A stretch of DNA of 64,000 nucleotides from sequence record NC_054908.1; one strand, given 5' to 3'. The notes beneath the pieces are model-generated. The model was not told the DNA's origin. It worked only from the letters and a program-made list of their open reading frames with translations, and made no database searches. The DNA is from Escherichia phage vB_EcoM_DalCa. This document shows, in pieces, positions 1,328 to 22,650 of this stretch; position 1 is the stretch's first letter, and each line of letters opens with the position of its first letter. The position numbers and the translations under genes were made by a program.

Positions 1328-1335
1328 TATAAATA
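1328..1335 (+). promoter_or_regulatory. T4-type late promoter TATAAATA upstream of gene 24
   Basis: exact TATAAATA about 28 nt upstream of the gene 24 ATG (1363), with GGAAAG Shine-Dalgarno between. Confidence 0.65.
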
Positions 1336-1362
1336 AATCATATAAACTGAAAGGAAAGCGCA

Positions 1363-2646
1363 ATGGCTAAAATCAACGAACTTCTGCGCGAATCAACCAC
1401 AACGAATAGCAACTCAATCGGTCGCCCAAATCTCGTTGCTTTGACTCGCGCTACCACTAAATTAATATATTCTGACATTGTAGCAACGCAAAGAACTAAT
1501 CAACCTGTTGCTGCTTTTTATGGTATCAAATACCTTAACCCAGACAATGAATTTACATTTAAAACTGGTGCTACTTATGCTGGCGAAGCTGGATATGTAG
1601 ACCGAGAACAAATCACAGAATTAACAGAAGAGTCTAAATTAACTCTCAATAAGGGCGATTTATTCAAATATAATAATATCGTTTATAAAGTATTAGAAGA
1701 TACACCATTTGCTGATATTGAAGAAAGCGATTTAGAATTAGCTCTTCAGATTGCAATTGTTCTTTTAAAGGTTCGTCTATTTTCTGACGCAGCGTCAACA
1801 AGCAAATTTGAAAGCTCTGATAGTGAAATTGCGGATGCTAGATTCCAGATTAATAAATGGCAAACCGCAGTTAAATCTCGTAAACTTAAAACTGGTATCA
1901 CAGTTGAATTAGCACAAGATTTAGAAGCAAATGGATTCGATGCTCCTAATTTCTTGGAAGATTTGCTTGCAACTGAAATGGCAGATGAAATCAATAAAGA
2001 TATTCTGCAGTCTTTGATTACAGTGTCAAAACGCTATAAAGTTACAGGAATTACTGATACTGGATTCATCGATTTGAGTTATGCATCTGCACCTGAAGCT
2101 GGTCGTTCATTATACCGAATGGTATGTGAAATGGTTTCGCATATCCAAAAAGAATCAACTTATACAGCAACGTTCTGTGTTGCTTCAGCTCGTGCTGCTG
2201 CGATTCTTGCTGCATCAGGTTGGTTAAAACATAAACCAGAAGATGACAAATATCTTTCACAAAATGCCTACGGGTTCTTAGCTAATGGTTTACCGCTTTA
2301 TTGCGATACTAACAGCCCATTAGATTATGTAATCGTTGGCGTAGTAGAAAATATCGGTGAAAAAGAAATTGTTGGATCAATTTTCTATGCTCCGTATACA
2401 GAAGGTCTTGACTTAGATGACCCTGAACATGTAGGTGCATTTAAAGTTGTAGTTGATCCAGAAAGTTTGCAGCCATCTATCGGTTTATTAGTTAGATATG
2501 CTTTATCTGCAAATCCTTACACCGTAGCAAAAGATGAAAAAGAAGCAAGAGTAATTGATGGTGGAGACATGGATAAAATGGCGGGTCGTTCAGATTTGTC
2601 TGTTTTATTAGGTGTTAAACTACCAAAAATTATCATTGATGAATAA
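1363..2646 (+). CDS. 24: head vertex protein gp24 (gp23 paralog)
   Basis: 427-aa ORF, recognised as T4 gp24; position immediately after gene 23. Confidence 0.95.
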   Translation: MAKINELLRESTTTNSNSIGRPNLVALTRATTKLIYSDIVATQRTNQPVAAFYGIKYLNPDNEFTFKTGATYAGEAGYVDREQITELTEESKLTLNKGDLFKYNNIVYKVLEDTPFADIEESDLELALQIAIVLLKVRLFSDAASTSKFESSDSEIADARFQINKWQTAVKSRKLKTGITVELAQDLEANGFDAPNFLEDLLATEMADEINKDILQSLITVSKRYKVTGITDTGFIDLSYASAPEAGRSLYRMVCEMVSHIQKESTYTATFCVASARAAAILAASGWLKHKPEDDKYLSQNAYGFLANGLPLYCDTNSPLDYVIVGVVENIGEKEIVGSIFYAPYTEGLDLDDPEHVGAFKVVVDPESLQPSIGLLVRYALSANPYTVAKDEKEARVIDGGDMDKMAGRSDLSVLLGVKLPKIIIDE

Positions 2647-2650
2647 AACA

Positions 2651-2676
2651 AAGGGACCTTTCGGTCCCTTTTTATT
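2651..2676. terminator. bidirectional hairpin terminator between gene 24 and rnlB (AAGGGACC-TTTC-GGTCCCTT)
   Basis: 8-bp inverted repeat with 4-nt loop, T-runs on both strands; lies between convergent genes. Confidence 0.65.
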
Positions 2677-2831
2677 TAACTTACCAATTCAATCCAAGCC
2701 GGACGAAGTACATCTTGTACCATTTTAACTAATTCCTTTTTAATCAAAGAAGGATTATCTGCTTGAGTTAGAGTAATACCTTCACGAGAAGTTTCTTCCA
2801 AAATATCTTGAACAGTTAGTCCCATCACCTT

Positions 2832-3680
2832 TCAAAAATCCTTCGGACCAATTTCACCAATTTTAGAAATAACGTTATTTACTCGGTTCAGTGTAACGTA
2901 GCAAGCTAAAATTCCCACCAATTTGTTATCAGCTTCTGATAGTTCAACTTTAGCTTTAATAGGCTTATCAGACTTTTTCTTTTCACTAAATTTGGAATTC
3001 TTGCATTTGATGGCTACACGATTTCCATTATGAAGCCAAGAAGGACAACAAGGTTTCAATACATATCCTTCAGCGGTAAATACTTCGCCTTTGGCTTCAG
3101 CTTTCCAAACACATTTGTTAGCGTCAACTAATCCTGCATGGTCTACTGTAAAATTATAATCTTGGACGACAGAATCTAAATCATTTGGCAATTTAATAAG
3201 CTCTTCAAATTTACCGCGACCTAAAAGTGGAGCCATTTTAAATTTAAATGTATTACAAAATGATTCCATCATATAATCATCGACATAAGTCACATCACCA
3301 CTTTCTGTAGTGACAATAATGTCAAATACATAAAAATCTTTATCGCCATAATCGACATTCTTCTGAATGCCAGGTCCAGCGAATTCGCCAAAGACTTGAT
3401 AAGATACAACCGCTGAGGTTTCCATAATATCTTGTACTGCTTTAATAGAATCTTCGTAATTCTTTAGAATAATTTCATACCCAAAGAAATCTTCAGCAGG
3501 AAGAATTGGTCCAGTACGTTTAGCGCAAGTTACTTTATCACGCTCAATAATCAATGAGAAATTTGTGCCGTGAATCTTTTCACGAGCTACCCACTCCCCA
3601 CCAGTCAATCCCAAGCTATAAAGTTTTTCAATAAATTTAGAGTTGTAATGATTTTCAAGACTGCTATACTTTTTAAACAT
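2832..3680 (-). CDS. rnlB: RNA ligase 2 (Rnl2), terminated by in-frame TGA after 282 codons; frame continues intact for 50 more codons to 2682
   Basis: N-terminus with KIHGTN nucleotidyltransferase motif I; recognised as T4 Rnl2 (334 aa); 282 + stop + 50 = 333 codons span the full-length position. Confidence 0.85.
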
Positions 3681-3689
3681 AATTAATCC

Positions 3690-3968
3690 TCAAAATGTAA
3701 TTTCTAACCAATCACCATCACGCTGATCACTATTGACTTTAAAGCTGAATCCTTCTTTTCTCAGCCAATCACCAATTTCTTCAGTAATCAATTTATCACG
3801 AGCAATACAATAATAACTAAAATGTGTTTTACCTTGTTCAGCTGCTTTATTAGCAAGTTCCGAAAAATCTTTAATAAAACATTCTAGTTTAAACTGTTTA
3901 CTTTTAAGTGCTTTTTCTCGCAATTGATTAGCAAAAGATTCATTTTCATAAAGATCATACTGTTCCAT
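3690..3968 (-). CDS. hypothetical protein (T4 24.2 position)
   Basis: 92-aa ORF, translationally coupled to flanking ORFs. Confidence 0.7.
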   Translation of the reverse strand: MEQYDLYENESFANQLREKALKSKQFKLECFIKDFSELANKAAEQGKTHFSYYCIARDKLITEEIGDWLRKEGFSFKVNSDQRDGDWLEITF

Positions 3969-4170
3969 TTTTCACCTTTTTATTGATATGTCTTTTTCTA
4001 TAGACGACTTTTTCTCGAGTTTCAAATTTATTCTTAGCAGTCATAGCTCGAGCCCATAATACAGCCACTTCTTTTGCCTGTAAGTTTAATTCACGAGCAA
4101 TTTCAATGAATGACTTTCCAGACTCATGAAGCGTAAACACCACAACCTCAGTTCTCATAATTAATCTCAT
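3955..4170 (-). CDS. small hypothetical protein with helix-turn-helix-like segment (T4 24.3 position)
   Basis: 71-aa ORF; segment GKSFIEIARELNLQAKEV resembles an HTH. Confidence 0.6.
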   Translation of the reverse strand: MRLIMRTEVVVFTLHESGKSFIEIARELNLQAKEVAVLWARAMTAKNKFETREKVVYRKRHINKKVKNGTV

Positions 4171-4259
4171 GTTATCGAGTTGGTGCCATTATATACATCA
4201 TTTTCTGATTGTGTTTTGCGTGCTTTCAAAATGAAGAAAGGGGCCGAAGCCCCTTATGA

Positions 4260-5675
4260 TTATGGATAGGTATAGATGATACCAGTTTCTAAAGCAGTTT
4301 TATGAATGATGTATCCATTACGCGATTCTTGGACATCAACTTCTGGATAGTCTTTAATCATCTTCTGAAGAGTGTAACGATGCAGGTAGTATTTACTATC
4401 TGGGTCGTCAGTTTTCCAATCTTTACCTTCTTCGGTCATTTTTTGGATTTCATCCATAACCCACCAACCGCACCAGATATAAGCTGAAGTACGATGTGGA
4501 AGAGGATGAACATAAGGTAGTTCACCTTCTGGTTCAATTGGAGTCCGTTCAGCAATAACAACTTCAGCTGTTGAACTAATTGTCTTTGAAGTGTAATTAT
4601 CTTTAGTTAATACTGCTTCAACTTTAATTGTATGAGTACCCGCTGAGGAGGTATCAATACTATAAGTATTAGTAGAATTACTTTCTGCTACGTTGTCTTT
4701 CTTCCAAGAGTACACAATATTAGTATCACCAGGAGCACCAGTAACAGATGCTGTTAAAGTTGCAGTTCCACCAACAGTAGTATTAACTGATGGCGGAGAT
4801 AAAGAAATGGTGGCACTATTAAATGTCGCATTATTAGTTACTACTGTTGCTTCTGCTGAAATTTCTTTTGTAACATAATTTGTTGCAGAAACAGATGCGG
4901 TGCATTTAAGAGTTTTACTTCCGACTTCGGTCGGAGTGAATTTATACGTAGCAGAAGTTGCATCCGGAATATTACTGTCATCCATTGACCATTGGAATGT
5001 TATAGTAGCACCTGAAGGTGCACTAGAGACATTTGCAGTTAAAGTAATAGGAACACCAAAGACTGTAGTCGGAGACTCGGGTGTAATTTTTAGCGTCGAA
5101 GAATTAGCCTTTTTATTTACAGTCAAAGAAACCGCTGATGATTCTACTGTTTTATCAACGTAATCAGTTGCAGTCACTGTGACAGAGCAAGTTATAGACT
5201 TAGTTCCTTCAGTTGTTGGTGTATATTCAAAGGTTGATTGCTTTTGACCGTCAACATCGACCCCGTCAACTTTCCATGTATAATCAATAGCAGCACCAAT
5301 AGGTTGATTGCTTACATTAGCAGTGAATGTTGTTGCTGTTCCAATTTCTACTGCCGCAGGAGAAGCCGGAGTAACAGTGATAGTGGAATTATTTTCTTTC
5401 TTATTAACAGTGATAGTTGTTGATGCTTCAGCTATTTCCGGATCTCCTGCGGAAAGTGTATTAGTTGCAACCACTTTAATTTTTTTTGTTCCTGCTGGAG
5501 AAGCAAGAGTATAATCCATTGTAGCAGCCGTAGAGCCCTGTGTTATATCATCTACAGTCCAGACGTATGTAATAGTACCGTCTGGGGTTTCACCTGCAGG
5601 TGTAGCAGTGAATGTTTGTGAACCTCCAATAACCCCTGTAGGAGTTAGAGGAGATAACGTGACAGTGAATGCCAT
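4260..5675 (-). CDS. hoc: Hoc, highly immunogenic outer capsid protein, with four tandem Ig-like repeats plus conserved C-terminal capsid-binding domain
   Basis: 471-aa ORF; four ~90-aa Thr/Ser-rich repeats; C-terminal ~90 aa (PEGELPYVHPLPHR...IIYTYP) recognised as Hoc capsid-binding domain. Confidence 0.9.
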   Translation of the reverse strand: MAFTVTLSPLTPTGVIGGSQTFTATPAGETPDGTITYVWTVDDITQGSTAATMDYTLASPAGTKKIKVVATNTLSAGDPEIAEASTTITVNKKENNSTITVTPASPAAVEIGTATTFTANVSNQPIGAAIDYTWKVDGVDVDGQKQSTFEYTPTTEGTKSITCSVTVTATDYVDKTVESSAVSLTVNKKANSSTLKITPESPTTVFGVPITLTANVSSAPSGATITFQWSMDDSNIPDATSATYKFTPTEVGSKTLKCTASVSATNYVTKEISAEATVVTNNATFNSATISLSPPSVNTTVGGTATLTASVTGAPGDTNIVYSWKKDNVAESNSTNTYSIDTSSAGTHTIKVEAVLTKDNYTSKTISSTAEVVIAERTPIEPEGELPYVHPLPHRTSAYIWCGWWVMDEIQKMTEEGKDWKTDDPDSKYYLHRYTLQKMIKDYPEVDVQESRNGYIIHKTALETGIIYTYP

Positions 5676-5684
5676 AAGTTATCC

Positions 5685-6365
5685 TTATTTTAATGTTATG
5701 AAAGAAGAATTACGAGTTTCGCGAATTAGAACTGATCCATCGCGATTAATATAATAAATTAAGCTAAATAATGTTTGGTGTGCTGACGCATGTTCAAAAC
5801 TAGTTGGGTGAGATTTCCAATCCGGAGTTTCAGCAATCCATTGATAAATCCACCAAGGAACAGTGCAGAATCCTGGATTTTTTCCAATCAGTTGAAGATT
5901 CGGACTAAAGTTTTCCGGAAGAGTAAATACAGACGGCTTTTCAGATTCAATAATCTCAGCTACAGCTTGTTCAAACTTTTCTTCAACAAACGGAGTGTCT
6001 TCAATCAAAACTGAGGTATTTTCAGGAATTTTATCCGTTTCTACTACTTCAATTTTAATGTCAGATTTAACCGGAGAATCAATCAAAAGTGCTGCTTCTG
6101 GATTGACTTCTTCATCGTCATATTTTAATCCCTCTGCGGCATCAGCAGCATCAATTAAGTCTTTAATAGATAACCCATCAGTCTCCGGCATAGGTTCACT
6201 AGCGAGCTTCTGGAGGGCTTCTTCAATATCAACAACGATATTATCAAAAGATTTATTCTTTTTGACCTTTATACCAAACTGTTCAGCATATTCAGCTAAT
6301 TTAGCTTTAGCTTCTTTGTTATCATCAAGAGCCTTCAGCTCTGCAATATAATCTTTATCTATCAT
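5685..6365 (-). CDS. inh: Inh, inhibitor of prohead protease gp21
   Basis: 226-aa ORF matching T4 Inh length and gene order. Confidence 0.8.
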   Translation of the reverse strand: MIDKDYIAELKALDDNKEAKAKLAEYAEQFGIKVKKNKSFDNIVVDIEEALQKLASEPMPETDGLSIKDLIDAADAAEGLKYDDEEVNPEAALLIDSPVKSDIKIEVVETDKIPENTSVLIEDTPFVEEKFEQAVAEIIESEKPSVFTLPENFSPNLQLIGKNPGFCTVPWWIYQWIAETPDWKSHPTSFEHASAHQTLFSLIYYINRDGSVLIRETRNSSFITLK

Positions 6366-6415
6366 AATATTTCCTCAGTATAAATATAGATATATTTATT
6401 ACATGGTATTTAGAC

Positions 6416-7927
6416 ATGACTGACATTAAAGTACATTTTTATGATTTTAGTCACGTGAGAATTGATTGTGAAGAAAGTACATTTCATGAACTCCGTGATT
6501 TCTTTAGCTTTGAAGCTGATGGGTATCGTTTTAATCCGAAGTACAGATATGGCCACTGGGATGGACGAATCCGTCTGTTAGATTATAATCGTCTTCTTCC
6601 ATTCGGCTTAGTCGGGCAAATTAAAAAGTTCTGCGATAACTTTGGCTATAAAGCCTGGATTGACCCACAGATTAACGAAAAAGAAGAATTATCAAGAAAA
6701 GATTTTGATGAATGGCTTTCTAAATTAGAAATCTATTCAGGAAATAAAAGAATTGAACCACATTGGTATCAAAAAGATGCAGTGTTCGAAGGATTAGTTA
6801 ATCGTCGTAGAATTCTTAATCTTCCAACATCCGCAGGTAAATCTTTAATTCAAGCTCTGCTTGCTCGGTATTATTTGGAAAATTATGAAGGCAAAATTCT
6901 TATTATTGTTCCAACAACTGCTCTGACAACTCAGATGGCTGATGACTTTGTTGACTATCGTTTATTCAGTCATGCAATGATAAAGAAAATCGGTGGTGGA
7001 GCATCAAAAGATGATAAATATAAAAATGATGCACCAGTCGTTGTTGGTACATGGCAAACTGTAGTAAAACAACCGAAAGAATGGTTCTCACAGTTTGGAA
7101 TGATGATGAATGATGAATGCCATCTTGCTACAGGAAAAAGTATTTCATCTATCATATCAGGTTTAAATAACTGCATGTTCAAATTTGGTCTATCTGGTTC
7201 ATTACGTGATGGCAAAGCCAATATCATGCAGTATGTTGGAATGTTTGGTGAAATATTTAAGCCAGTAACGACTTCTAAGTTAATGGAAGATGGACAAGTA
7301 ACTGAGCTAAAAATTAATAGTATTTTTCTTCGCTATCCCGATGAGTTCACTACTAAATTAAAGGGAAAAACTTATCAAGAAGAAATAAAAATTATTACGG
7401 GGCTTAGTAAAAGAAATAAATGGATCGCTAAATTGGCTATTAAGCTTGCACAAAAAGATGAAAACGCTTTTGTCATGTTTAAACATGTATCACATGGTAA
7501 AGCTATTTTCGATTTAATTAAAAATGAATACGATAAAGTTTATTACGTATCAGGGGAAGTTGATACCGAAACCCGCAACGTAATGAAAACCTTAGCTGAA
7601 AATGGTAAAGGAATAATTATAGTAGCTAGTTATGGTGTATTTTCTACTGGTATTTCAGTTAAAAATCTGCATCACGTTGTTTTAGCGCACGGTGTTAAAT
7701 CAAAAATCATTGTATTACAAACAATCGGTCGTGTATTACGTAAGCATGGTTCTAAAACAATCGCAACAGTCTGGGACCTCATAGATGACTGTGGTGTCAA
7801 GCCAAAATCTGCTAATACTAAAAAGAAATATGTTCACTTGAACTATCTTTTAAAACACGGCATTGATCGTATTCAGCGCTACGCAGATGAAAAATTTAAT
7901 TACGTAATGAAAACAGTTAATTTATAA
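6416..7927 (+). CDS. uvsW: UvsW DNA/RNA helicase (SF2)
   Basis: 503-aa ORF; Walker A-like LPTSAGKS and DExH-like NDECH motifs; recognised as T4 UvsW. Confidence 0.93.
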   Translation: MTDIKVHFYDFSHVRIDCEESTFHELRDFFSFEADGYRFNPKYRYGHWDGRIRLLDYNRLLPFGLVGQIKKFCDNFGYKAWIDPQINEKEELSRKDFDEWLSKLEIYSGNKRIEPHWYQKDAVFEGLVNRRRILNLPTSAGKSLIQALLARYYLENYEGKILIIVPTTALTTQMADDFVDYRLFSHAMIKKIGGGASKDDKYKNDAPVVVGTWQTVVKQPKEWFSQFGMMMNDECHLATGKSISSIISGLNNCMFKFGLSGSLRDGKANIMQYVGMFGEIFKPVTTSKLMEDGQVTELKINSIFLRYPDEFTTKLKGKTYQEEIKIITGLSKRNKWIAKLAIKLAQKDENAFVMFKHVSHGKAIFDLIKNEYDKVYYVSGEVDTETRNVMKTLAENGKGIIIVASYGVFSTGISVKNLHHVVLAHGVKSKIIVLQTIGRVLRKHGSKTIATVWDLIDDCGVKPKSANTKKKYVHLNYLLKHGIDRIQRYADEKFNYVMKTVNL

Positions 7928-7952
7928 GGGCTTCGGCCCTTTGGAGAAAAAG

Positions 7953-8183
7953 ATGTTACTAGAATTTAAACAATTTCTTTATGAAGCTTCTATTGATGAA
8001 TTTATGGGTAAAATTGCCTCTTGTCAAACATTAGAAGGTTTAGAAGAGCTTGAAGCTTATTATAAGAAAAGAGTTAAAGAAACTGAATTAAAAGATACTG
8101 ATGACATCTCAGTCAGAGATGCTTTGGCAGGAAAAAGAGCTGAATTAGAAGATTCAGACGATGAAGTAGAAGAAAGCTTTTAA
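7953..8183 (+). CDS. uvsW.1: UvsW.1 small acidic protein
   Basis: 76-aa ORF from the ATG at 7953 (track ORF begins at an upstream TTG); GGAG Shine-Dalgarno. Confidence 0.75.
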   Translation: MLLEFKQFLYEASIDEFMGKIASCQTLEGLEELEAYYKKRVKETELKDTDDISVRDALAGKRAELEDSDDEVEESF

Positions 8184-12136: not shown

Positions 12137-12617
12137 TAAAGAAGTTTCTATTCCTAAGATGGGTCTTAAACATTATAACATTTTAAAAGATGTTAAAGGT
12201 CCTGATGAAAATTTAAAGCTTCTTATTGATTCTATTTGTCCAAATTTATCACCGGCAGAAGTTGATTTCGTTTCTATTCATTTATTGGAATTTAATGGAA
12301 AGATTAAATCTCGTAAAGAAATAGATGGCTATACTTATGACATTAATGATGTTTATGTATGCCAAAGATTAGAATTTCAATACCAAGGAAATACATTTTA
12401 TTTTAGACCTCCTGGAAAATTTGAACAATTTTTAACGGTGAGCGATATGTTATCTAAATGCTTGCTTAAGGTCAACGATGAAGTTAAAGAAATTAATTTT
12501 CTTGAGATGCCAGCATTCGTTTTAAAATGGGCAAATGATATTTTTACAACTTTAGCAATTCCTGGCCCTAATGGTCCAATAACTGGAATTGGCAATATTA
12601 TTGGATTATTTGAATGA
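12084..12617 (+). CDS. 28: baseplate hub distal protein gp28
   Basis: 177 aa from the internal ATG at 12084 (track ORF starts further upstream inside gene 27); overlaps gene 27 end as in T4. Confidence 0.8.
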
Positions 12618-14386
12618 AAAAGCCACAAGAAATGCAAACGATGCGTAGAAAAGTTATTTCAGATAATAAACCAACACAGGAAGCGGCTAAATCCGCTTCC
12701 AATACTTTATCTGGACTTAATGACATTTCTACAAAATTGGATGATGCTCAAGCTGCTTCTGAATTAATAGCTCAAACCGTTGAAGAAAAATCGAATGAAA
12801 TAATTGGAGCAATTGACAATGTAGAAAGCGCAGTGAGTGATACTACTGCTGGTTCTGAGTTAATTGCTGAAACTGTAGAAATTGGCAACAATATTAATAA
12901 AGAAATCGGTGAATCACTCGGAAGTAAATTAGATAAATTAACGAGTTTACTAGAACAAAAAATTCAAACAGCTGGAATTCAACAGACAGGAACCAGCTTA
13001 GCTGTAGTCGAAAGTGCTATTCCCGTTAAAGTTGTTGAGGATGATACAGCTGAATTTGTTGGTCCATTATTACCAGCTCCTGAAGCAGTTAATAATGATC
13101 CTGACGCTGATTTTTTCCCTGCCCCTCAACCAGTTGAACCTAAGCGAGAGTCACCGGAAGAAAAACAGAAAAAAGAAGCATTTAATTTAAAATTATCTCA
13201 AGCTTTAGATAAATTAACAAAGACTGTTGATTTTGGATTTAAAAAATCCATTTCAATTACTGATAAAATATCAAGCATGCTATTTAAGTATACTGTCAGT
13301 GCTGCTATTGAAGCTGCTAAAATGGTTGCATTAATAATGGCTGTTGTTATTGGAATAGACCTACTGATGGTTCATTTTAAATATTGGTCAGATAAATTTT
13401 CAAAAGCCTGGGATTTGTTTAGCACTGATTTTAAAACTTTTTCAAGCGAAACCGGAACTTGGGGTCCTTTATTACAGAGCATCTTTGAATCTATTGATGA
13501 AATTAAAAAGTTCTGGGAAGCGGGAGATTGGGGCGGTTTGACGGTAGCTATTGTAGAAGGGCTTGGAAAGGTTCTTTATAATTTAGGAGAACTTATTCAG
13601 CTTGGAATGGCTAAATTATCAGCAGCAATTCTTCGAGTTATTCCTGGTATGAAAGATACTGCTGACGAAGTAGAAGGAAGAGCGCTGGAAAATTTCCAAA
13701 ATTCTACTGGAGCATCTCTCAATAAAGAAGACCAGGAAAAAGTTGCGAATTATCAAGATAAACGAATGAATGGAGACCTTGGTCCGATAGCAGAAGGACT
13801 AGACAAAATTGCGAACTGGAAAACTCGTGCATCTAACTGGATTCGTGGTGTTGATAATAAAGAAGCATTGACAACTGATGAAGAACGCGCAGCAGAAGAA
13901 GAAAAATTAAAGCAGCTTTCACCAGAAGAAAGAAAAAATGCTTTAATGAAGGCTAATGAAGCCCGTGCCGCGATGATTCGTTTTGAAAAATATGCTGATT
14001 CAGCTGATATGAGTAAAGACTCAACAGTTAAATCAATTGAAGCCGCTCATGAAGACCTTAAAAAACGGATGAATGACCCGGATTTAAATAATTCACCTGC
14101 AGTTAAAAAGGAGCTTGCTTCTAGATTTGCTAAAATTGATGCTACTTATCAAGAGCTTAAGAAAAATCAACCTGAGGCCAAACCTGAAACTTCTGCTAAA
14201 TCGCCAGAAGCAAAACAAGTCCAGGTAATAGAAAAGAACAAAGCACAGCAAGCTCCTGTTCAACAAGCATCTCCTTCAATCAATAATACTAATAATGTTA
14301 TTAAGAAAAATACTGTCGTTCATAATATGACACCCGTAACGAGCACAACTGCTCCTGGTGTATTTGGCGCGACTGGAGTTAATTAA
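12614..14386 (+). CDS. 29: baseplate hub / tail length determining protein gp29
   Basis: 590-aa ORF, T4 gp29 length and position. Confidence 0.92.
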   Translation: MKKPQEMQTMRRKVISDNKPTQEAAKSASNTLSGLNDISTKLDDAQAASELIAQTVEEKSNEIIGAIDNVESAVSDTTAGSELIAETVEIGNNINKEIGESLGSKLDKLTSLLEQKIQTAGIQQTGTSLAVVESAIPVKVVEDDTAEFVGPLLPAPEAVNNDPDADFFPAPQPVEPKRESPEEKQKKEAFNLKLSQALDKLTKTVDFGFKKSISITDKISSMLFKYTVSAAIEAAKMVALIMAVVIGIDLLMVHFKYWSDKFSKAWDLFSTDFKTFSSETGTWGPLLQSIFESIDEIKKFWEAGDWGGLTVAIVEGLGKVLYNLGELIQLGMAKLSAAILRVIPGMKDTADEVEGRALENFQNSTGASLNKEDQEKVANYQDKRMNGDLGPIAEGLDKIANWKTRASNWIRGVDNKEALTTDEERAAEEEKLKQLSPEERKNALMKANEARAAMIRFEKYADSADMSKDSTVKSIEAAHEDLKKRMNDPDLNNSPAVKKELASRFAKIDATYQELKKNQPEAKPETSAKSPEAKQVQVIEKNKAQQAPVQQASPSINNTNNVIKKNTVVHNMTPVTSTTAPGVFGATGVN

Positions 14387-14394
14387 GGAATAAT

Positions 14395-15489
14395 ATGGCA
14401 ATTGTTAAAGAAATAACTGCTGATTTAATTAAAAAGTCCGGTGAGAAAATTTCAGCCGGACAGAGTACTAAATCAGAAGTAGGAACTAAAACATACACAG
14501 CCCAGTTTCCAACTGGGCGTGCTAGTGGGAATGACACTACAGGGGACTTCCAGGTAACAGATCTATATAAGAATGGATTATTATTTACTGCATACAATAT
14601 GTCATCTAGGGATTCTGGAAGTCTCAGAACGATGAGATCTAACTACTCTTCTTCATCTTCTAGTATTTTACGTACAGCCAGAAACACTATTAGTAGTACA
14701 GTATCAAAACTATCAAATGGATTAATATCAGATAATAATTCAGGAACAATAAGTAAAGTTCCTGTTGCAAATATTCTTTTACCGAGATCTAAATCCGATG
14801 TTGATACATCATCACATAGATTTAACGATGTTCAAGATAGTCTTATTACAAAAGGTGGAGGTACTGCTACTGGCGTGTTAAGCAATATGGCTTCAACTGC
14901 AGTATTTGGAGCACTGGAAAGTATAACACAAGGTATAATGGCTGATAATAATGAACAGATTTATACGACAGCCAGAAGTATGTATGGTGGTGCTGAGAAT
15001 AGAACTAAAGTGTTCACTTGGGATTTGACTCCGCGTTCCACAGAAGATTTAATGGCTATTATTAATATCTATCAATATTTTAACTATTTTTCTTATGGTG
15101 AAACGGGTAAATCTCAATATGCTGCTGAAATAAAAGGATATCTAGATGAGTGGTATCGCTCTACTTTTATTGAGCCATTAACTCCAGAAGATGCAGTTAA
15201 AAATAAGACGTTATTTGAGAAAATGACATCGAGTTTAACTAACGTTCTTGTAGTTTCAAACCCGACAATTTGGATGGTTAAAAACTTTGGCGCAACTTCT
15301 AAATTTGACGGAAAAACAGAAGTGTTTGGACCGTGTCAAATTCAAAGTATTAGATTTGATAAAACTCCGAATGGTAATTTTAACGGATTAGCTATTGCTC
15401 CTAACCTTCCAAGTTCTTTTACACTCGAGATTACTATGAGAGAGATTATCACGTTAAACCGTGCTTCTTTATATACGGGGACTTTCTAA
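14395..15489 (+). CDS. 48: baseplate tail-tube junction protein gp48
   Basis: 364-aa ORF, T4 gp48 length and position. Confidence 0.92.
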   Translation: MAIVKEITADLIKKSGEKISAGQSTKSEVGTKTYTAQFPTGRASGNDTTGDFQVTDLYKNGLLFTAYNMSSRDSGSLRTMRSNYSSSSSSILRTARNTISSTVSKLSNGLISDNNSGTISKVPVANILLPRSKSDVDTSSHRFNDVQDSLITKGGGTATGVLSNMASTAVFGALESITQGIMADNNEQIYTTARSMYGGAENRTKVFTWDLTPRSTEDLMAIINIYQYFNYFSYGETGKSQYAAEIKGYLDEWYRSTFIEPLTPEDAVKNKTLFEKMTSSLTNVLVVSNPTIWMVKNFGATSKFDGKTEVFGPCQIQSIRFDKTPNGNFNGLAIAPNLPSSFTLEITMREIITLNRASLYTGTF

Positions 15490-16454
15490 TGTATTCTTTA
15501 GAGGAATTTAATAATCAAGCAATAAACGCAGATTTTCAACGTAATAATATGTTTAGCTGCGTTTTTGCGACAACTCCATCAACTAAAAGCTCTTCGTTGA
15601 TAAGTTCAATTAGCAACTTTTCTTATAATAACTTGGGTCTAAATTCAGACTGGTTAGGATTGTCTCAAGGTGATATTAATCAGGGAATTACCACGCTAAT
15701 TACTGCTGGCACACAAAAACTGATAAGAAAATCAGGGGTTAGTAAATATCTTATTGGTGCCATGAGTCAACGTACAGTTCAAAGTTTATTGGGTTCATTT
15801 ACAGTTGGTACATATTTAATTGACTTCTTTAATATGGCGTATAATTCATCTGGATTGATGATATACTCTGTAAAAATGCCAGAGAATAGATTATCCTATG
15901 AAACTGACTGGAACTATAATTCTCCTAATATTCGTATAACTGGGAGAGAATTAGACCCTTTGGTTATTTCATTTAGAATGGATTCAGAAGCTTGTAACTA
16001 TCGTGCAATGCAAGACTGGGTTAACGCTGTTCAAGACCCAGTAACTGGATTACGTGCTTTGCCACAAGATGTCGAGGCAGATATTCAGGTTAATCTTCAT
16101 GCTCGTAATGGATTACCTCATACTGCGGTGATGTTCACCGGATGCATTCCAGTGTCAGTGAGCGCTCCTGAGTTATCATATGATGGAGATAACCAAATAA
16201 CTACATTTGATGTTACTTTTGCATATAGAGTCATGCAGGCTGGAGCAGTTGATAGGCAAGCTGCGCTTGAATGGCTTGAATCTGCTGCTATAAATGGTAT
16301 TCAAAGCGTTCTCGGAAATAGTGGAGGTGTTACTGGACTATCTAATTCGCTTTCACGACTCAGTAGATTAGGGGGAACTGCAGGAAGCATTTCAAACATT
16401 AATACTATGACAGGAATTGTCAATTCGCAGAGTAAAATATTAGGAGCAATATAA
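15489..16454 (+). CDS. 54: baseplate tail-tube initiator gp54
   Basis: 321-aa ORF, T4 gp54 length and position. Confidence 0.92.
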   Translation: MYSLEEFNNQAINADFQRNNMFSCVFATTPSTKSSSLISSISNFSYNNLGLNSDWLGLSQGDINQGITTLITAGTQKLIRKSGVSKYLIGAMSQRTVQSLLGSFTVGTYLIDFFNMAYNSSGLMIYSVKMPENRLSYETDWNYNSPNIRITGRELDPLVISFRMDSEACNYRAMQDWVNAVQDPVTGLRALPQDVEADIQVNLHARNGLPHTAVMFTGCIPVSVSAPELSYDGDNQITTFDVTFAYRVMQAGAVDRQAALEWLESAAINGIQSVLGNSGGVTGLSNSLSRLSRLGGTAGSISNINTMTGIVNSQSKILGAI

Positions 16455-16456
16455 CA

Positions 16457-16488
16457 ATGGGGACCTTTCGGTCCCCATATTTTTATTT
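16457..16488. terminator. bidirectional hairpin terminator (GGGGACC-TTTC-GGTCCCC) between gene 54 and the alt-region ORFs
   Basis: 7-bp GC stem, 4-nt loop, T-run; convergent transcription units meet here. Confidence 0.7.
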
Positions 16489-16773
16489 ACGGAATGAAAT
16501 AAAAGCAGAAACTGAAGCAACTAAACTATCTTCAATATAAACTTCAATTTTTACCGGAGCTTCTGACTCAAATTTACCTGTTACTACACCCTGAAAAATA
16601 CTTTCAGTCTGTTCTGGCTTTGAAAAATTTTCAGAAGGAAAAATTCCAAACTTTTTATCGGTTCCAAAAATTTTAATAAATTCATCATAAACTGCTTCAT
16701 TGAAAGCGTTATCAGCGGGAATAACGCCCTCAACTACAAGTTCTTGACCTAAAAAGCGCAAAGAAGATTTCAT
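16483..16773 (-). CDS. hypothetical protein (alt.-3 position)
   Basis: 96-aa ORF with GAGGAA Shine-Dalgarno, preceded by an early-type promoter. Confidence 0.7.
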   Translation of the reverse strand: MKSSLRFLGQELVVEGVIPADNAFNEAVYDEFIKIFGTDKKFGIFPSENFSKPEQTESIFQGVVTGKFESEAPVKIEVYIEDSLVASVSAFISFRK

Positions 16774-16799
16774 TTTGTGTTCCTCATGTTATGTAAGTA

Positions 16800-16850
16800 A
16801 GACTACTATAACACAACATGATGGACTTGTAAACTACATTTTGAACTTTT
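16800..16850 (-). promoter_or_regulatory. T4 early-type promoter (GTTTACA -35, 17-bp spacer, TATAGT -10) upstream of 16483..16773
   Basis: minus-strand GTTTACAAGTCCATCATGTTGTGTTATAGT; the -35 overlaps the stop codon of the upstream alt paralog. Confidence 0.6.
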
Positions 16851-18891
16851 TAGACATTCCGTTAATGTTAACCAAAGAAGCTAAGATTTGAGAAACTTCA
16901 TTTTCCTCTTCTTTTGATTCTTCTACAAGGAATTGATTAAATCCAGCCATTGGACGAACTTCACCAGTTTCCATTAGATGGTCTCCATCATATACTGATT
17001 CTTCTAATTGTTCAGAAGGAGGAACGATTGTACCTTCGATTAGATACTTGTTATAAGCAGTTTCTTTCATAAAGTACGTACTTACTTTATTAATCTTCAG
17101 TAAAATTCCACGTGGTAGAATAACTTCAGCTTCTGATGGAAATCCTGATAAATGACCCGGAACGATAACTTTGATTCGCTCAGCTCCTTTAATTACCATA
17201 CCCACGCTAGTTTCAGCATCTTCATTAGCATATGTAGAATGACTACCCATATGCATCAAATCTTCTGCATCAACAGAACCTTCTCCTTCGCCAGAAAATA
17301 CTGCACCGGAATCATCTAGAGCCATATAGTTTTTACCATGCTCACCGAAGATATTTGGTTTAAGTGATGTCGATACGAAGTTCTTGAAATAGAACATTTT
17401 ATTTTCAATATTGTGACGCAAAGTTTTAAAGGTAACTTCTTGTCCACGGTAAAGTGTAGTTCCTGGAGGAAGAACTGAACCTTTAGCGAATGCAGAATCC
17501 AGCGTCTCAATATGTTTAATAGCTCGTTCCATATATTCTTCACGGGTAGAATCTGGTTTACCCAAAAGGAACGAGTTCATTTCAACATATGAATCTGCAC
17601 AATAATCTTCAATTACGTCAGATTCAGCCTGAGTTAATCCTTTTGGAGTTACTTCAGTACTTGCATATTCATATGCCTGAGCGGCAGATTCATTAATCAA
17701 TTTATAAATGCCATTCATGACAAATTGAATAATAGCTGTCTTTTCATCTGGCGTAGCTTTAGAACCTTTAACTAAATCATTGACAATTTTCTTAATAACA
17801 TCAAAACTATTAGAAATATTAATATCAGCAAGATCGCTTAAAATTTTATCAGTTTTATAATCAAAGAATTCTTTATTCTTTAAATATTCTTGAGAACCTT
17901 GATATGTTATATCGCTCTGCAGCTTGATAGATGGATCGCGTAAACGTGCATGGGCCAATGCAATATGATTTCGGAAGTTTTCTAGTTCATAATCGTTAGA
18001 TTTAAAACGAGAAGCACTTCTCATACCACCGATAGCTCCTTTGCTAAAGTTTGAACCAATCTGAATAACGCCAGAGTTCATCGGACCTTCTGCTTTATAT
18101 ACCGGAACTTTAGATTCAAACTCTTGATATTTCTTGGCAGCAAAGCTATCACCCTGAAGTGAAGCATCAACAGTAGAATATTGAGCTTGTGCTGCTAATC
18201 GACGACTTATTTTAGTTTTCTGAATAACAGCTTGGTCCGTGCGCTTATCATTTTCTAAAGCAATAGAAGCAGCAACAGCGACAGCTTTAGGAACAGCATT
18301 TCCTGTTTTAACGTCTACATAAACATCACCGACCTTTGATTCAACTTTTGTGAATAACTCAGTTGAAATAGGAGGTACACCTGGAATGTCTTCTAAATTG
18401 GCATTTTTACGGTAAACCATAATATATGCATATTTCTTATCATAGTCCCAGATTTCCTTTAAAAGAACATATCGACCTGCTCCTTTAGTACGTACTAAAC
18501 GGTCAGCAATAACTTGCATTTGACGAGCTGCGCCATTTGTTTTACTTTTTAGTACGCGGAATAGGCATGCGTCGATTTTATACTGTTTCATTGTTTGAAG
18601 AGCAGTATCAAAAACGGCATTAATGACACCAATTGGATTTCCACCCAAGTTTCTAAGTTTAACCAGTGATAGTTTCTCATTAACACCTATCATTACGATA
18701 TGCATCATTTTATCGCCTGGCTTAACGTTTTTATTCGTATCACCACCAGAGGTGTATGTACAAAATCTAAATCCAGGAAGCACGCTTTCTTCGCCGGCTT
18801 GAATAGCAAAAATTTGTGGTATTTTATGCTTAGGATTTAAGTTAACAACCGGCGCCGAAGCGCCGTCAAATAATTCTGTAATAAGTTCCAT
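16834..18891 (-). CDS. Alt-like ADP-ribosyltransferase paralog (second, divergent full-length copy)
   Basis: 685-aa ORF; N-terminus MELITELFD and first ~230 aa similar to Alt; C-terminal region keeps TLYRG, FVSTSL and EAEVILPRG motifs. Confidence 0.85.
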   Translation of the reverse strand: MELITELFDGASAPVVNLNPKHKIPQIFAIQAGEESVLPGFRFCTYTSGGDTNKNVKPGDKMMHIVMIGVNEKLSLVKLRNLGGNPIGVINAVFDTALQTMKQYKIDACLFRVLKSKTNGAARQMQVIADRLVRTKGAGRYVLLKEIWDYDKKYAYIMVYRKNANLEDIPGVPPISTELFTKVESKVGDVYVDVKTGNAVPKAVAVAASIALENDKRTDQAVIQKTKISRRLAAQAQYSTVDASLQGDSFAAKKYQEFESKVPVYKAEGPMNSGVIQIGSNFSKGAIGGMRSASRFKSNDYELENFRNHIALAHARLRDPSIKLQSDITYQGSQEYLKNKEFFDYKTDKILSDLADINISNSFDVIKKIVNDLVKGSKATPDEKTAIIQFVMNGIYKLINESAAQAYEYASTEVTPKGLTQAESDVIEDYCADSYVEMNSFLLGKPDSTREEYMERAIKHIETLDSAFAKGSVLPPGTTLYRGQEVTFKTLRHNIENKMFYFKNFVSTSLKPNIFGEHGKNYMALDDSGAVFSGEGEGSVDAEDLMHMGSHSTYANEDAETSVGMVIKGAERIKVIVPGHLSGFPSEAEVILPRGILLKINKVSTYFMKETAYNKYLIEGTIVPPSEQLEESVYDGDHLMETGEVRPMAGFNQFLVEESKEEENEVSQILASLVNINGMSKKFKM

Positions 18892-18894
18892 GAT

Positions 18895-20949
18895 TTATCC
18901 TTGAACGAACTTGTAAGGCATGTTTGCAATATCTATACAAGACGCAATAATTCCAAGAGATGATTCTACTTTCTGTTTAACATTTGATGAAACAAATGAT
19001 GCAAAGTCAACTCTGTCTTCTACTTCAATATCACCTGTCATTGCAACCAATTCACCAGTTTCCATTAAATGGTCTCCGTCATAGATTACCGATTCGGTGA
19101 GCTCTTCCGTGGTCATAACTTCAGCTTGAATAAGCTTGTTGTTAGTTTTAACTGTTCCATCATTGTAAGATGCATCAGTTATTTTATTAACTTTGACCAT
19201 TAATCCACGTGGCAAAATAACTTCCATTTCATTTGAAGGCGCTAAACTTCCACCGGGTAAAACAACATTGACTTTATCAGCCCCAGTAATAACCCATCCA
19301 ATTCCGACTAAATTATCGCTAGAATTAACAAGCCCTTCATCATTTTTATCGATAGAAATGTTTAGACGCTTTTCATCTGGTAAAACACCAACAGCTGAAT
19401 CAGTCATCCAAGTACCAAAAATGTTTGGATATAATGATGTTGATACAAAATTTCTAAAATAAAAAACTCGATTTTTTACCAATGCTTCATATATTGAAGG
19501 TAACATTCGCTGTGAACGATATAAAGTAATACCTTTTGGCAATCGATCACCATTTTTAAAGGCTGAATCTAAATTATCAATAGCTTTTTCTATGTCAGAT
19601 GCTGTCAAAATACTTGTACGCTCATCTGGATTATATAATCCCAAAAGAGCATTATTTATGTCTACATATCCTGAACCTACGTATTCACGAATTCCGCGTT
19701 TTTGTGCTGGTGTGTATTTAGATGAATCTTTATTTTCGACTATAGGATGTAATGACCATCCAGCTGTAAGAGCATATCCACGTAATTCTCTTCGAATAAT
19801 CTTTGTTTTTATTGCATTCCAAGAATTTTGTACTAACTCATTTGCAGCATCTTGGTTTAAATGCGAATGTTTGTTAATATTTCTTTCAAACCAAGCACCT
19901 TTATATTTTTCTAAAGTATCATCGACGATAGAAGCAATAGTTTCTAAAGTTTTTATTGAAGTAATAGATTCTTTTCGTAATTTTTCTAAAGCTTTATTTT
20001 TTATTTCTGCATTAATAATGGATTCTTTATCTTCAGGAATTATAGAAGCTTCTCTGAATGCCATCCCAGCTGTAACACTGCTAAGAGCATTCTCTAGTGC
20101 AAATCCTGAAGTAGAAATTACCGTTAATTCATTAGAATCAGAAATTAAAGGCGCGTCCGCTGGTTTATTTAATTCTGCCGCTGAAGCCTCAAATTTTTGA
20201 AACATCGGTGTTTCAAATCTAGAAGATTCCAATGACTGACTTTGTGCAATTGCTCTACGGGAAATTTTAACTTTAACGATTACAGCTTGGTCAGAACGTT
20301 TATCATTTTCTTGTGCAATAGATGCTGCAATTGCCTCATTTTTGGTTACTTGAGCTCCGGTATCTTTATTGATATAAACATCACCGACCTTCGATTCAAC
20401 TTTAGTAAAGAGCTCGGTACTAATTTCCGGAACTCCTGGAATGTCTTCTAGTGATACATTTTTGCGATGTATAAGAATATATGCATACTTTTTATCATAA
20501 TCCCAGAGTTCCTTAAGAAGGACGTATCTGCCACCTGAACGACTACGGATAAGTCTATCAGCAATAACTTGAATTTGTCGAGCTTGACCAGCGGTTTTAG
20601 ACTTAAGAATACGAAGCATACAAGCATCAATTTTATACTGACGCATTGTTTGCATTGCAACAGTAAAAACTGAATTGATATAATTAATTGGGCTTGGACC
20701 AAGACCTTTTAATTTAGCAATTGAACCTTTAGCAGTTAATGTAAAAGGAACAATATGCATCATTTTATCGCCCATTTTTAAATCGCGATTAGTATCACCT
20801 CCAGATGTATAGGTACATAAACGAAAGCCTGGTTGTTCAATTGCATCATCAACATGAACTGAAAAAATTTGCGGTATTTTCTTCTTTGGATTTAAGTTTG
20901 TAATCGGAAGAGTAGTATCTTCGTCAAATAATTCTGTAATAAGTTCCAT
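18895..20949 (-). CDS. alt: Alt, ADP-ribosyltransferase packaged in the virion
   Basis: 684 aa from the second Met; recognised as T4 Alt along its length; motifs TLYRS, FVSTSL, EMEVILPRG. Confidence 0.92.
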   Translation of the reverse strand: MELITELFDEDTTLPITNLNPKKKIPQIFSVHVDDAIEQPGFRLCTYTSGGDTNRDLKMGDKMMHIVPFTLTAKGSIAKLKGLGPSPINYINSVFTVAMQTMRQYKIDACMLRILKSKTAGQARQIQVIADRLIRSRSGGRYVLLKELWDYDKKYAYILIHRKNVSLEDIPGVPEISTELFTKVESKVGDVYINKDTGAQVTKNEAIAASIAQENDKRSDQAVIVKVKISRRAIAQSQSLESSRFETPMFQKFEASAAELNKPADAPLISDSNELTVISTSGFALENALSSVTAGMAFREASIIPEDKESIINAEIKNKALEKLRKESITSIKTLETIASIVDDTLEKYKGAWFERNINKHSHLNQDAANELVQNSWNAIKTKIIRRELRGYALTAGWSLHPIVENKDSSKYTPAQKRGIREYVGSGYVDINNALLGLYNPDERTSILTASDIEKAIDNLDSAFKNGDRLPKGITLYRSQRMLPSIYEALVKNRVFYFRNFVSTSLYPNIFGTWMTDSAVGVLPDEKRLNISIDKNDEGLVNSSDNLVGIGWVITGADKVNVVLPGGSLAPSNEMEVILPRGLMVKVNKITDASYNDGTVKTNNKLIQAEVMTTEELTESVIYDGDHLMETGELVAMTGDIEVEDRVDFASFVSSNVKQKVESSLGIIASCIDIANMPYKFVQG

Positions 20950-21001
20950 CATAGCCTCTCTAGTGTTTATTCTATTTATAAAATTAAAGGCCCGAAGGCC
21001 T

Positions 21002-21190
21002 TTAGTAATCTAGTGGTAAGAGAGTACGATATATTTCAAACTTTGGTCCTTTTTCATAGGCATCAAATGTTTCTGTAAATTTATTATAAGCGTATGCATC
21101 TACAAATTCGAGAATGACTTGTGATACAGAAGTAGAAACATCTCCACCTTCTTTTTGAGCAATGACAATTGTTTCTAAGTAAGCTTTCAT
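21002..21190 (-). CDS. small hypothetical protein (alt.1 position)
   Basis: 62-aa ORF between ligase and alt, stop/start coupled to gene 30. Confidence 0.65.
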   Translation of the reverse strand: MKAYLETIVIAQKEGGDVSTSVSQVILEFVDAYAYNKFTETFDAYEKGPKFEIYRTLLPLDY

Positions 21191-22650
21191 AAACCAGTTA
21201 CCTCATGAAAATCACCAAATACATCCTCGAATGTATTAGCTTTAGTTTTATCTTCACGTAAACGAATCGCAATCGGAAGAAATAATTTAACGTAATCAGT
21301 GCGGCCATCAGATTTTAACCAACCGTTGCATTCGCACTCTAGAATTTTTCCAATATAATAATTTTGGTTTTCCATAATGCGAGTACGGTCAAGTTCATGT
21401 GATTTTACGCCGGCTTTGTCTTTTAAGCCTGAACCAGCATTTACCTTAATTTTTCCACACTCTGACTCAAGAATAAATCCACCTGCTTTAGTAGGGTCTT
21501 TACGGTGAGGATAAATTCCTACAATTTTTAAATCAACATCAATTACTTCTTTAAATTTATAGAGATTTTTTGAACGAGCATTTTCCCATAACCCATCAAC
21601 GTTTTTGAGAATAATACCTTCAAGACCTTGATCAATATACTTTTTATAAATTACCTTAGCTTCATCTAGGTTATTTACTACCTGGTTTTCAATTAAAATT
21701 ACTTTATCATAACCTGATGTCATTTGTTCTAGTTTAGAAAAACGTACATCATATTTCAAACGAAATGCAGGAAGACCGTATATTTCTACCAACGGGACAT
21801 AATCCCAGACCTGAAACTTCATGCATTGAGCTTCTTTTTCAGAAATGGTTCCCTTTAAAGATTTATTGGCGATGCCATTAGATGCAGTACGTGATTCAGC
21901 TACTTCGGCGAATTCTTTAGCTTTACTAATTTCAGGATAAGCATCAAAAAGAAAATCTAGGCCTTCTGGCTCCTTTTCAACTTGCTCATGGTATACCAAT
22001 TCGCCATCAATTAACACACCTTCTGGATGAATCTGGCGAGCTTCTGCAGTCATTTTGATTAACTCTTCCTTAAGAAGATCTAATCCTAGATATTCATTAC
22101 CAGCTCGTGATAAAAGACGAACATCATCTAATTCATCACCTCTAACTTCAGCAAAACACCGAGCTCCATCAGCTTTTAACTGGGCAAAGGCTGGAAATTT
22201 GATATTCTTATTAATGCCTTTTTCATCATAAGAACTTGCAAGCATTTGAGGTTGTTCAGGAATTAAACCTGGCCAAACTTTGTTCGCAATAGATACTGAA
22301 GCACCACATTCAAGGTCTCGCATCATCACCCGACGCAAAACTTCAACATCATCTTTTTTACCGTCAGTAATATATCCAGTTAATTCCTCAATTGCCGCAT
22401 TTCCAGTCAATTTCCGAGTAGCTAACGTGAATTCAATGAAGTCAAGCATATCGGTAAGAGTCAACATTCCAAAACTCTGGGTAGCAATACCCGGTTTAGG
22501 CCATTTCTTGATATAATACTGTAACCCACGAGAATAAGTCAGACGATATACTCGTTTAAGCAATTCATTATCTTTATTCTTTTCAAGAATTGCTTGCTTC
22601 TGCTTAGTTGAACCAATAGATGCTATTTCGTTCAGAATTTTAAGAATCAT
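21187..22650 (-). CDS. 30: ATP-dependent DNA ligase gp30
   Basis: 487-aa ORF; KADGAR adenylation motif; recognised as T4 DNA ligase. Confidence 0.95.
   Translation of the reverse strand: MILKILNEIASIGSTKQKQAILEKNKDNELLKRVYRLTYSRGLQYYIKKWPKPGIATQSFGMLTLTDMLDFIEFTLATRKLTGNAAIEELTGYITDGKKDDVEVLRRVMMRDLECGASVSIANKVWPGLIPEQPQMLASSYDEKGINKNIKFPAFAQLKADGARCFAEVRGDELDDVRLLSRAGNEYLGLDLLKEELIKMTAEARQIHPEGVLIDGELVYHEQVEKEPEGLDFLFDAYPEISKAKEFAEVAESRTASNGIANKSLKGTISEKEAQCMKFQVWDYVPLVEIYGLPAFRLKYDVRFSKLEQMTSGYDKVILIENQVVNNLDEAKVIYKKYIDQGLEGIILKNVDGLWENARSKNLYKFKEVIDVDLKIVGIYPHRKDPTKAGGFILESECGKIKVNAGSGLKDKAGVKSHELDRTRIMENQNYYIGKILECECNGWLKSDGRTDYVKLFLPIAIRLREDKTKANTFEDVFGDFHEVTGL

Follow-up and report, generated by a model that had tools for sequence, protein, structure and literature searches.

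Nearly everything known about Alt, the textbook case of a host-reprogramming enzyme that is carried in the phage capsid and injected, has been learned from bacteriophage T4. Mass spectrometry has shown that in T4 heads Alt is shortened at both ends by gp21, the prohead protease, which removes six residues at ITE-6 and 63 at LTE-619 and leaves a mature form of 68.2 kDa (PMC5694885; the processing of Alt by gp21 is reviewed in PMC9026906). Mutation of a glutamate in the ExE motif, reported as E577A, abolishes the activity of T4 Alt (PMC11404850); the numbering used there appears to be one off with respect to NP_049811, in which the motif reads E574-M-E576. T4 represents a minority genotype that is devoid of Alt2, the subject of this report: a second, full-length Alt paralog encoded in tandem with Alt in Escherichia phage vB_EcoM_DalCa, a member of the genus Tequatrovirus, of which a stretch of 64,000 nucleotides (nt) from sequence record NC_054908.1, hereafter the window, was analysed. 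In our judgement it is likely that the two genes, alt (gene A) and alt2 (gene B), encode two functional Alt-family NAD+:arginine mono-ADP-ribosyltransferases, and that Alt2 is made late, packaged, trimmed by gp21 and injected, probably with a substrate range other than that of Alt.

How does Alt2 compare with the ADP-ribosyltransferases (ARTs) described so far? It resembles the head-packaged and injected Alt of T4 in length, domain order, the pair of Pfam domains PF26846 and PF03496, both cleavage motifs, locus and strand, and differs from it in being only 41% identical, in its dissimilar middle region, in an unlike insert between the STS and ExE motifs, in a phenylalanine (F584) before ExE, where Alt has no aromatic residue, and in having no promoter of its own. 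ModA and ModB, by contrast, are small proteins (~200 residues) consisting of the ART domain alone, made after infection and devoid of an N-terminal packaging domain; their action comes later in the cycle than that of Alt, and they do not enter the cell with the DNA. Alt2, with its 685 residues, the N-terminal domain and processing motifs of Alt, and a position behind a late promoter, is not of that type. The R-S-E clade toxins (C3, Vis and the iota/CDTa/VIP2 group) have the ART fold and the catalytic motif positions of Alt2 at an identity of 15-21%, but have neither the N-terminal and helical domains of the phage proteins nor the motifs for gp21; whereas the QxE motif of C3 is Asn-specific, the ExE found in both Alt paralogs is of the arginine-specific type. 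Nor does Alt2 belong with the MuF-fused or polyvalent ART effectors, since a Pfam scan of the protein returned no MuF or other effector domain; Alt itself has been placed outside the genuine polyvalent proteins (Iyer et al. 2017; PMC5512222). A precedent for tandem duplication of a full-length alt gene exists in phage 44RR, which belongs to a genus and lineage different from those of DalCa, and the same survey listed alt.-1 and alt.-2 of T4 as paralogous to alt (Nolan et al. 2006; PMC1524935).

The tandem genes and the catalytic residues of Alt2

Two open reading frames (ORFs) of 685 residues, at 16834..18891 and 18895..20952 in the ORF list, follow each other on the minus strand, on which all features described below lie unless stated otherwise. 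As the preliminary description of this DNA had it, they are 3 nt apart: the spacer ATC (18892-18894) separates the TAA stop codon of alt (18895-18897) from the ATG of alt2 (18889-18891). In the direction of transcription alt is the first (5') and alt2 the second (3') gene, so that the terms upstream and downstream, which had earlier been assigned by plus-strand coordinates, have to be reversed. Both proteins had been said to begin with MELITELFD, and both contain this sequence; the ORF ending at 20952, however, opens with ATGATG and thus carries an extra leading Met (MM-ELITE). Because the second of these ATGs is the annotated start in T4 and is also better spaced from a GAGG (5 nt, as compared with 2 nt for the first), alt most likely occupies 18895..20949 and encodes 684 residues, while alt2 occupies 16834..18891 and encodes 685.

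That the copy at 18895..20949 is the T4 Alt ortholog, as had been recognised beforehand, is borne out by 98.5% amino acid identity to T4 Alt (NP_049811) in an aligned DNA block with 96.5% nucleotide identity. Alt and Alt2 are 41% identical over their full length (BLASTP, E=1e-162), and each aligns along its entire length with phrog_802, 'Alt-like RNA polymerase ADP-ribosyltransferase' (residues 1-685 of Alt2 on profile positions 2-674 of 674). Both also score well above the gathering threshold of 23.4 for PF03496 (ADPrib_exo_Tox) in a Pfam scan, Alt2 with 72 bits and Alt with 123 bits, and the N-terminal domain PF26846 (Tevenvirinae_ADPRT) has been precomputed on a protein 99% identical to Alt2 (P0001) as well as on the Alt/Alt2 fusion proteins described below. 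An NCBIfam scan gave no match for either protein.

The ART domain (PF03496) of Alt2 comprises residues 421-631 (16999..17631) and ends at the LEE-631 motif discussed in the next section. Five of its residues are invariant in an alignment of 17 Alt-family sequences: R482 (17446-17448), S507 and S509 of the STS motif (17365-17373), and E587 and E589 of E587-A-E589 (17125-17133), the counterparts of which in Alt are R478, STS503-505 and E574-x-E576. The R-S-ExE motifs picked out earlier, namely TLYRG/TLYRS, FVSTSL and EAEVILPRG/EMEVILPRG, are all present. In alignments made with the family profile, the arginine of LYR coincides with that of YRG in the C3-like enzyme 4xsg, and EAE with QYE in C3 and EYE in the iota-like BECa; the profile is needed to reach these toxins, since a phmmer search of PDB sequences with Alt2 found no match. 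An AlphaFold2 model of Alt2, with a mean predicted local distance difference test score (pLDDT) of 70.3, agrees with this assignment, for Foldseek pairs the ART part of the model with Vis, C3, CDTa, VIP2 and Certhrax at a probability of 1.0. The view that the second copy is an intact enzyme, for which pairwise alignment and structure prediction had been proposed as a check, has gained from both, in that they returned the paralogy and the match to the ART fold of solved toxins. Judged by its sequence, Alt2 is an intact Alt-family paralog that keeps every catalytic residue and the domain order of Alt.

Processing motifs and predicted packaging

At its N terminus Alt2 starts with MELITE (codons 1-6, 18874..18891), a predicted propeptide with the same gp21 motif, ITE-6, as in Alt. 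At the other end, residues 632-685 (16837..16998) form a predicted C-terminal propeptide opening with the conserved motif SVYDGDHLMETGE, which is common to Alt. In the Alt protein encoded here, the two sites are I4-T5-E6 and L617-T618-E619, and the computed mass of the 7-619 form is 68.2 kDa; in Alt2 they are I4-T5-E6 and L629-E630-E631, followed by S632, and the 7-631 form computes to 69.2 kDa. Across the family alignment E631, Y634, D635, G636 and D637 are invariant and the Ser after E631 is nearly so; the sequence (S)V(I)YDGDHLMETGE after the L-x-E site is common to Alt and Alt2. In the Alt2 model, LEE-631 falls in a low-confidence, probably disordered stretch. We infer from these motifs that gp21 cleaves Alt2 at ITE-6 and LEE-631. 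Since LEE-631 matches the LTE-619 site proven by mass spectrometry in T4 Alt, the idea that Alt2 is packaged is strengthened, and the protein is probably a component of the head.

Two conserved ends and a divergent middle

How far apart, then, are the two paralogs? The N-terminal alpha/beta domain of Alt2 (PF26846, residues 7-238, 18178..18873) is the most similar part: residues 1-230 are 67.8% identical to Alt, slightly more than the 60-65% that had been estimated by eye for this region. Next to it lies an all-helical middle region (residues 239-420, 17632..18177), a candidate specificity or adaptor region, in which the identity to Alt drops to 18-30% in a heavily gapped alignment over residues ~245-420, and then the ART domain, 38-52% identical except for the variable insert. 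The dissimilarity of the middle, which had been put at about 300 residues that could not be aligned, thus holds over a shorter extent, ~180 residues (~240-420) without detectable homology. Comparison of Alt2-type with Alt-type middle regions by hhalign gave a probability of 1.7%; with profiles as shallow as these, built from 6 and 4 sequences, the two regions may nevertheless descend from one ancestor.

The element order is the same in the models of the two proteins: in Alt2 an alpha/beta N-domain (1-225), an all-helical middle (243-470), the ART part (475-625) and a disordered stretch (628-663). Against the BFVD model of Mosigvirus SP18 Alt, Alt2 reaches a query-normalised template modelling score (TMq) of 0.70 over 668 columns and Alt one of 0.36 over ~670 columns; this gap is probably due to the way the domains are oriented in models of medium confidence.

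A further difference lies in the loop preceding the ExE motif. Three positions before the first Glu, proteins of the Alt2 lineage have an aromatic residue (F584 here, Y in relatives), and no aromatic residue is present in this loop of T4-type or RB6-type Alt. Because the middle is without detectable homology and this loop differs as well, the substrate range of Alt2 is probably different from that of Alt, or at least such a difference is plausible from the sequences compared.

A search with the Alt2 middle (residues 240-425) of 1.84 billion representative proteins produced one match, a 1147-residue repeat protein (P0121). This protein is Cys-rich and contains many copies of 'GRFI(T/N)xDYSLQNFN', seven repeats of which match query residues ~40-69 (SRFKSNDYELENFRN) at E=3e-7. 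The hit was treated as spurious because it runs through the repeated 'GRFI..DYSLQNFN' motif, and it is probably a chance motif amplified by repetition. The search as a whole says little, in that the relatives of Alt2 themselves also went unmatched, probably owing to the 50% cluster representation of the library.

Constraint on alt2 and age of the duplication

Selection on alt2 was estimated from five orthologs (DalCa, Nami, pSs-1, phage 132 and RB6), i.e. 10 pairs with a synonymous divergence (dS) of ~0.19. The frame of 685 residues is preserved in all five, and the changes summed over the 10 pairs comprise 736 synonymous versus 104 nonsynonymous ones. The ratio of nonsynonymous to synonymous divergence (dN/dS) is 0.034 for the whole gene; by region it is lowest in the N-domain, the most constrained part (0.007), and amounts to 0.016 in the C-terminal tail, 0.030 in the ART domain and 0.071 in the middle. 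The gene is under strong purifying selection.

Between alt and alt2, dS exceeds 1 in every segment and reaches a saturated value of ~1.45 in the N-terminal one, which makes the duplication an old one. The same N-terminal value led us to reject recent gene conversion as the source of the high identity seen there, which in the DalCa genome is explained by constraint. A tandem of the same kind occurs in the Dhakavirus phage dhabil (MN850621; locus L015, positions 701-4888), where two genes of 686 and 707 codons, again separated by a 3-nt gap, lie between the same flanking genes. The second of them is of the Alt2 type, and both keep the L-x-E-S...YDGD site and the ExE motif. Such sequence evidence indicates that the duplication is older than the split between Tequatrovirus and Dhakavirus.

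The alt2 remnant of T4 and the distribution of the tandem

What does T4 have in place of alt2? As the preliminary description stated, only the short reading frames alt.-1 (NP_049810, 61 residues) and alt.-2 (NP_049809, 67 residues) are found at this position, which both the T4 annotation and a comparison of the two loci confirm. The T4 locus is collinear with that of DalCa except for 16854..18543, a segment of 1,690 bp that is absent from T4 and that is flanked in DalCa by 9-nt direct repeats, CTAAAAAGT on the coding strand, at 18544-18552 and 16845-16853. Positions 4105-4454 of the extracted T4 locus align collinearly with 18544-18891 of the window, inside the 96.5%-identical block. The join in T4 is out of frame and yields the C terminus of alt.-2, which ends in LKSSKCSLQVPRVVL before the stop codon, and a separate loss of 1 nt (a -1 frameshift) in an A-run divides the T4 stub into alt.-1 and alt.-2. 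In the T4 GenBank record the two are put down to an old duplication of the beginning of alt. The collinear alignment and the repeat-bounded deletion show them to be the remnant of a full-length alt2. Two protein families of 61 and 67 positions, phrog_23015 and phrog_15247, match residues 1-56 and 62-117 of Alt2, and are taken here as the alt.-1 and alt.-2 families, judged by their size and the positions of the matches.

Of the related phage records in GenBank, 498 in number, 400 have the alt2 segment in one piece to an extent of at least 80%, and 91 (~18%), T4 among them, have the T4-type junction, likewise in one piece. A protein at least 95% identical to Alt2 is encoded in ~395 records, including T2, whose ortholog (BBF63359) is labelled just 'hypothetical protein'. 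The 90% cluster of Alt2 has 772 member sequences; truncated cluster representatives of 415, 528 and 624 residues also exist. Labels already in use elsewhere are 'Alt-like RNA polymerase ADP-ribosyltransferase (x2)', 'alt_1/alt_2' and, in the BASEL phages Bas35, Bas36 and Bas42, 'ADP-ribosyltransferase Alt2'. The proteins of these three phages and of RefSeq Tequatrovirus are direct orthologs, 95-99% identical, at the same position and with the same 3-nt spacing, and show no substantial difference from the one studied here. The tandem is thus the majority state in Tequatrovirus and is already annotated, so that the novelty implied by the preliminary description was overstated: the existence and intactness of the gene are in public annotation, and no new kind of system is added. 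The additions made here are only the origin of alt.-1 and alt.-2 of T4, the conserved C-terminal processing site, and the figures on selection and distribution.

Over the 4.85-kb locus, the closest record is that of phage vB_EcoM_C2-3, with 99.7% identity, and many others are 97-98.6% identical. In the wider family Straboviridae the alt locus appears generally unstable. Split or fragmented alt genes were noted in the Acinetobacter phages ZZ1 and Henu6, in Citrobacter phage CF1 (392 and 315 residues) and in HY03 (484 residues), among BFVD matches, and one Aeromonas phage has four Alt-like places.

Gene neighbourhood and expression signals

The gene order at the locus is that of T4, with alt and alt2 on the leftward strand between gene 30/alt.1 and alt.-3/gene 54. 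Directly downstream of alt2 lies a homolog of alt.-3 (16483..16773; 96 residues, DUF5498), beyond which the baseplate genes 29, 48 and 54 run on the plus strand (12614-16454). On the other side, upstream of alt, a homolog of alt.1 (21002..21190; 62 residues; Pfam PF24647 'Phage_blade', E=1.9e-29) adjoins the DNA ligase gene (21187..22650), the end of which it overlaps by 4 nt. In T4, the only mutations that escape the CmdTAC defence are C-terminal extensions of Alt.-3 (PMC11618068). An antisense ORF within alt (19592..20200, plus strand, 202 residues) was considered and set aside as probably a chance ORF, as neither homology nor context supports it.

All expression signals at the locus are consensus matches. 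The T4 late-promoter consensus TATAAATA occurs at 20973..20980, ~20 nt upstream of the alt start, as the sole exact copy between 16300 and 21300 (12 matches are found in the whole window); its role as a promoter is assigned from the known consensus of T4 late promoters. Just upstream of it, a terminator-like hairpin (TAAAGGCCTTCGGGCCTTTA followed by a T-run, 20985..21004) would stop transcripts arriving from gene 30/alt.1. The scan of 16300-21300 detected no late-promoter consensus directly before alt2, so that alt2 would most simply come second, behind alt, on one late message. For alt2, a Shine-Dalgarno-like AAGGA (18898..18902) is situated 6 nt from the ATG and within the final codons of alt, an arrangement suggestive of translational coupling between the two genes. 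Gene 54 and alt.-3 are separated by a terminator-like, bidirectional hairpin (16457..16478, both strands), at which leftward transcripts of alt, alt2 and alt.-3 likely have their 3' end. A match to sigma-70/T4-early-like promoters, TTTACA-17-TATAGT, was also seen at 16833-16805, after the alt2 stop codon and before alt.-3, so that the alt.-3 homolog has an early-type match of its own.

Fused genes and possibly exchanged payloads

Some phages have, alone between alt.1 and alt.-3, a single fused alt gene that joins the N terminus of Alt to the rest of Alt2. Four were found: in vB_EcoM_SCS4 (ON506924) at positions 2655-4715 of the extracted locus (L005), and at 4001-6061, 6001-8055 and 6001-8061 of three further loci (L014, L004 and L002, respectively). 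Their junctions are distinct and all fall within the N-terminal domain, at about codon 150 in SCS4 by nucleotide comparison and at Alt2 residues 43-54, 174-192 and 218-224 in the others. Fusions of this kind would be expected if the tandem paralogs recombined unequally. Three of them were found in assemblies of metagenomes or read archives and might conceivably be assembly chimeras; the fourth, SCS4, has been isolated as a phage and its genome is complete, and it shows that a phage is viable with an Alt2-type catalytic part alone.

Two cassette types of Alt itself were also noted, a T4-type of 682-684 residues, to which DalCa belongs, and an RB6/T2-type of 697 residues. When 18895-20949 of the window was compared with RB6 (positions 4716-6809 of the extracted locus), T2 and two further loci, the types proved 94-100% identical over residues 1-250 and 88-94% over the C-terminal ~100 residues, as opposed to only 24-38% over residues 251-397 and 47-71% in the ART domain. 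Since T4-type Alt, RB6/T2-type Alt and Alt2 share their termini, at least four independent fusions exist, and the two types of Alt differ in the payload only, a modular picture suggests itself: the near-invariant N-domain and the C-terminal propeptide would serve to load the capsid, while the helical middle and the ART domain would be exchanged as cassettes. On this picture, which we hold tentatively and with more doubt than belief, the alt locus would be a constant delivery module with a swappable payload, and Alt2 would be delivered as another effector, directed at a host target of its own that might be part of an anti-phage defence system.

What might Alt2 do?

If Alt2 works as its resemblance to Alt suggests, alt2 would be expressed late, following alt on the transcript from the late promoter TATAAATA (20973-20980), with translation entering via the AAGGA inside the end of alt. 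The conserved N-terminal module would bring Alt2, like Alt, into the core of the prohead, where gp21 would trim it at ITE-6 and LEE-631 to ~69 kDa; once injected with the DNA, Alt2 would ADP-ribosylate host proteins at the start of infection. Several points weigh against so full an account. The two middle regions, both all-helical, may by the models be one fold diverged to extremes rather than different modules. The ARTT (ADP-ribosylating turn-turn) loop before ExE aids substrate recognition in C3/iota-type toxins, and its carry-over to Alt is an analogy. A literature search found no study of Alt2 function, nor any report of the protein in virions or of its injection. Finally, because T4 does without Alt2 and SCS4 without the catalytic part of Alt, each of the two appears dispensable, at least in the laboratory.

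Why should a phage keep two such genes? Perhaps Alt2 is a redundant back-up that acts on the substrates of Alt (RNA polymerase alpha and others) and raises the injected dose. For such a role speak the viability of the one-gene phages T4 and SCS4 and what the two proteins have in common, namely their motifs for catalysis and processing and the order of their domains. It is nonetheless unlikely, since the pair is old (dS above 1, and shared with Dhakavirus) and yet both members are under strong purifying selection, which distinct roles fit better, and since the middle regions are without detectable homology and the loop before ExE differs consistently by lineage. Moreover, according to a recent preprint, T4 Alt helps to evade Mokosh type I, and a Bas37 Alt variant cannot substitute for it (10.1101/2025.11.20.689424). 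This variant probably is the product of gene A, judging from its locus-tag position. Differences of payload within the Alt family do alter the phenotype.

It is also conceivable that Alt2, although made late, is left unpackaged and acts in the producing cell, or that it is mainly a non-catalytic component of the prohead core; Alt has indeed been regarded both as an enzyme and as a protein of the core (PMC11404850). We consider this improbable. A protein that is not packaged would hardly be expected to have the N-terminal propeptide of Alt, an N-domain with a dN/dS of 0.007 and a conserved C-terminal L-x-E-S/YDGDHLMETGE, and a purely structural role leaves the invariant R/STS/ExE residues and the dN/dS of 0.030 in the ART domain unexplained. 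Could alt2 instead be a decaying gene without a useful product, heading for the loss that has taken place in T4? The ~18% of related records with the deleted remnant and the truncated cluster representatives would be in keeping with decay, but an intact frame of 685 codons in five of five orthologs, a dN/dS of 0.034 and a full gene in 400 of 498 records render it barely credible. Two functional enzymes, the second of them packaged and probably aimed at other substrates, is the account that we prefer.

Implications

Recent work ties T4 Alt to the evasion of MazEF and Mokosh. Most natural T4-like coliphages, including T2 and many candidates for phage therapy, probably inject two different ADP-ribosyltransferases, and the strongly conserved Alt2 is a reasonable candidate for a host-takeover or counter-defence factor. 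If the picture of a constant delivery module with exchangeable payloads is true, the loss of alt2 in T4 would contribute to the differences in phenotype between T4 and T2-like phages.

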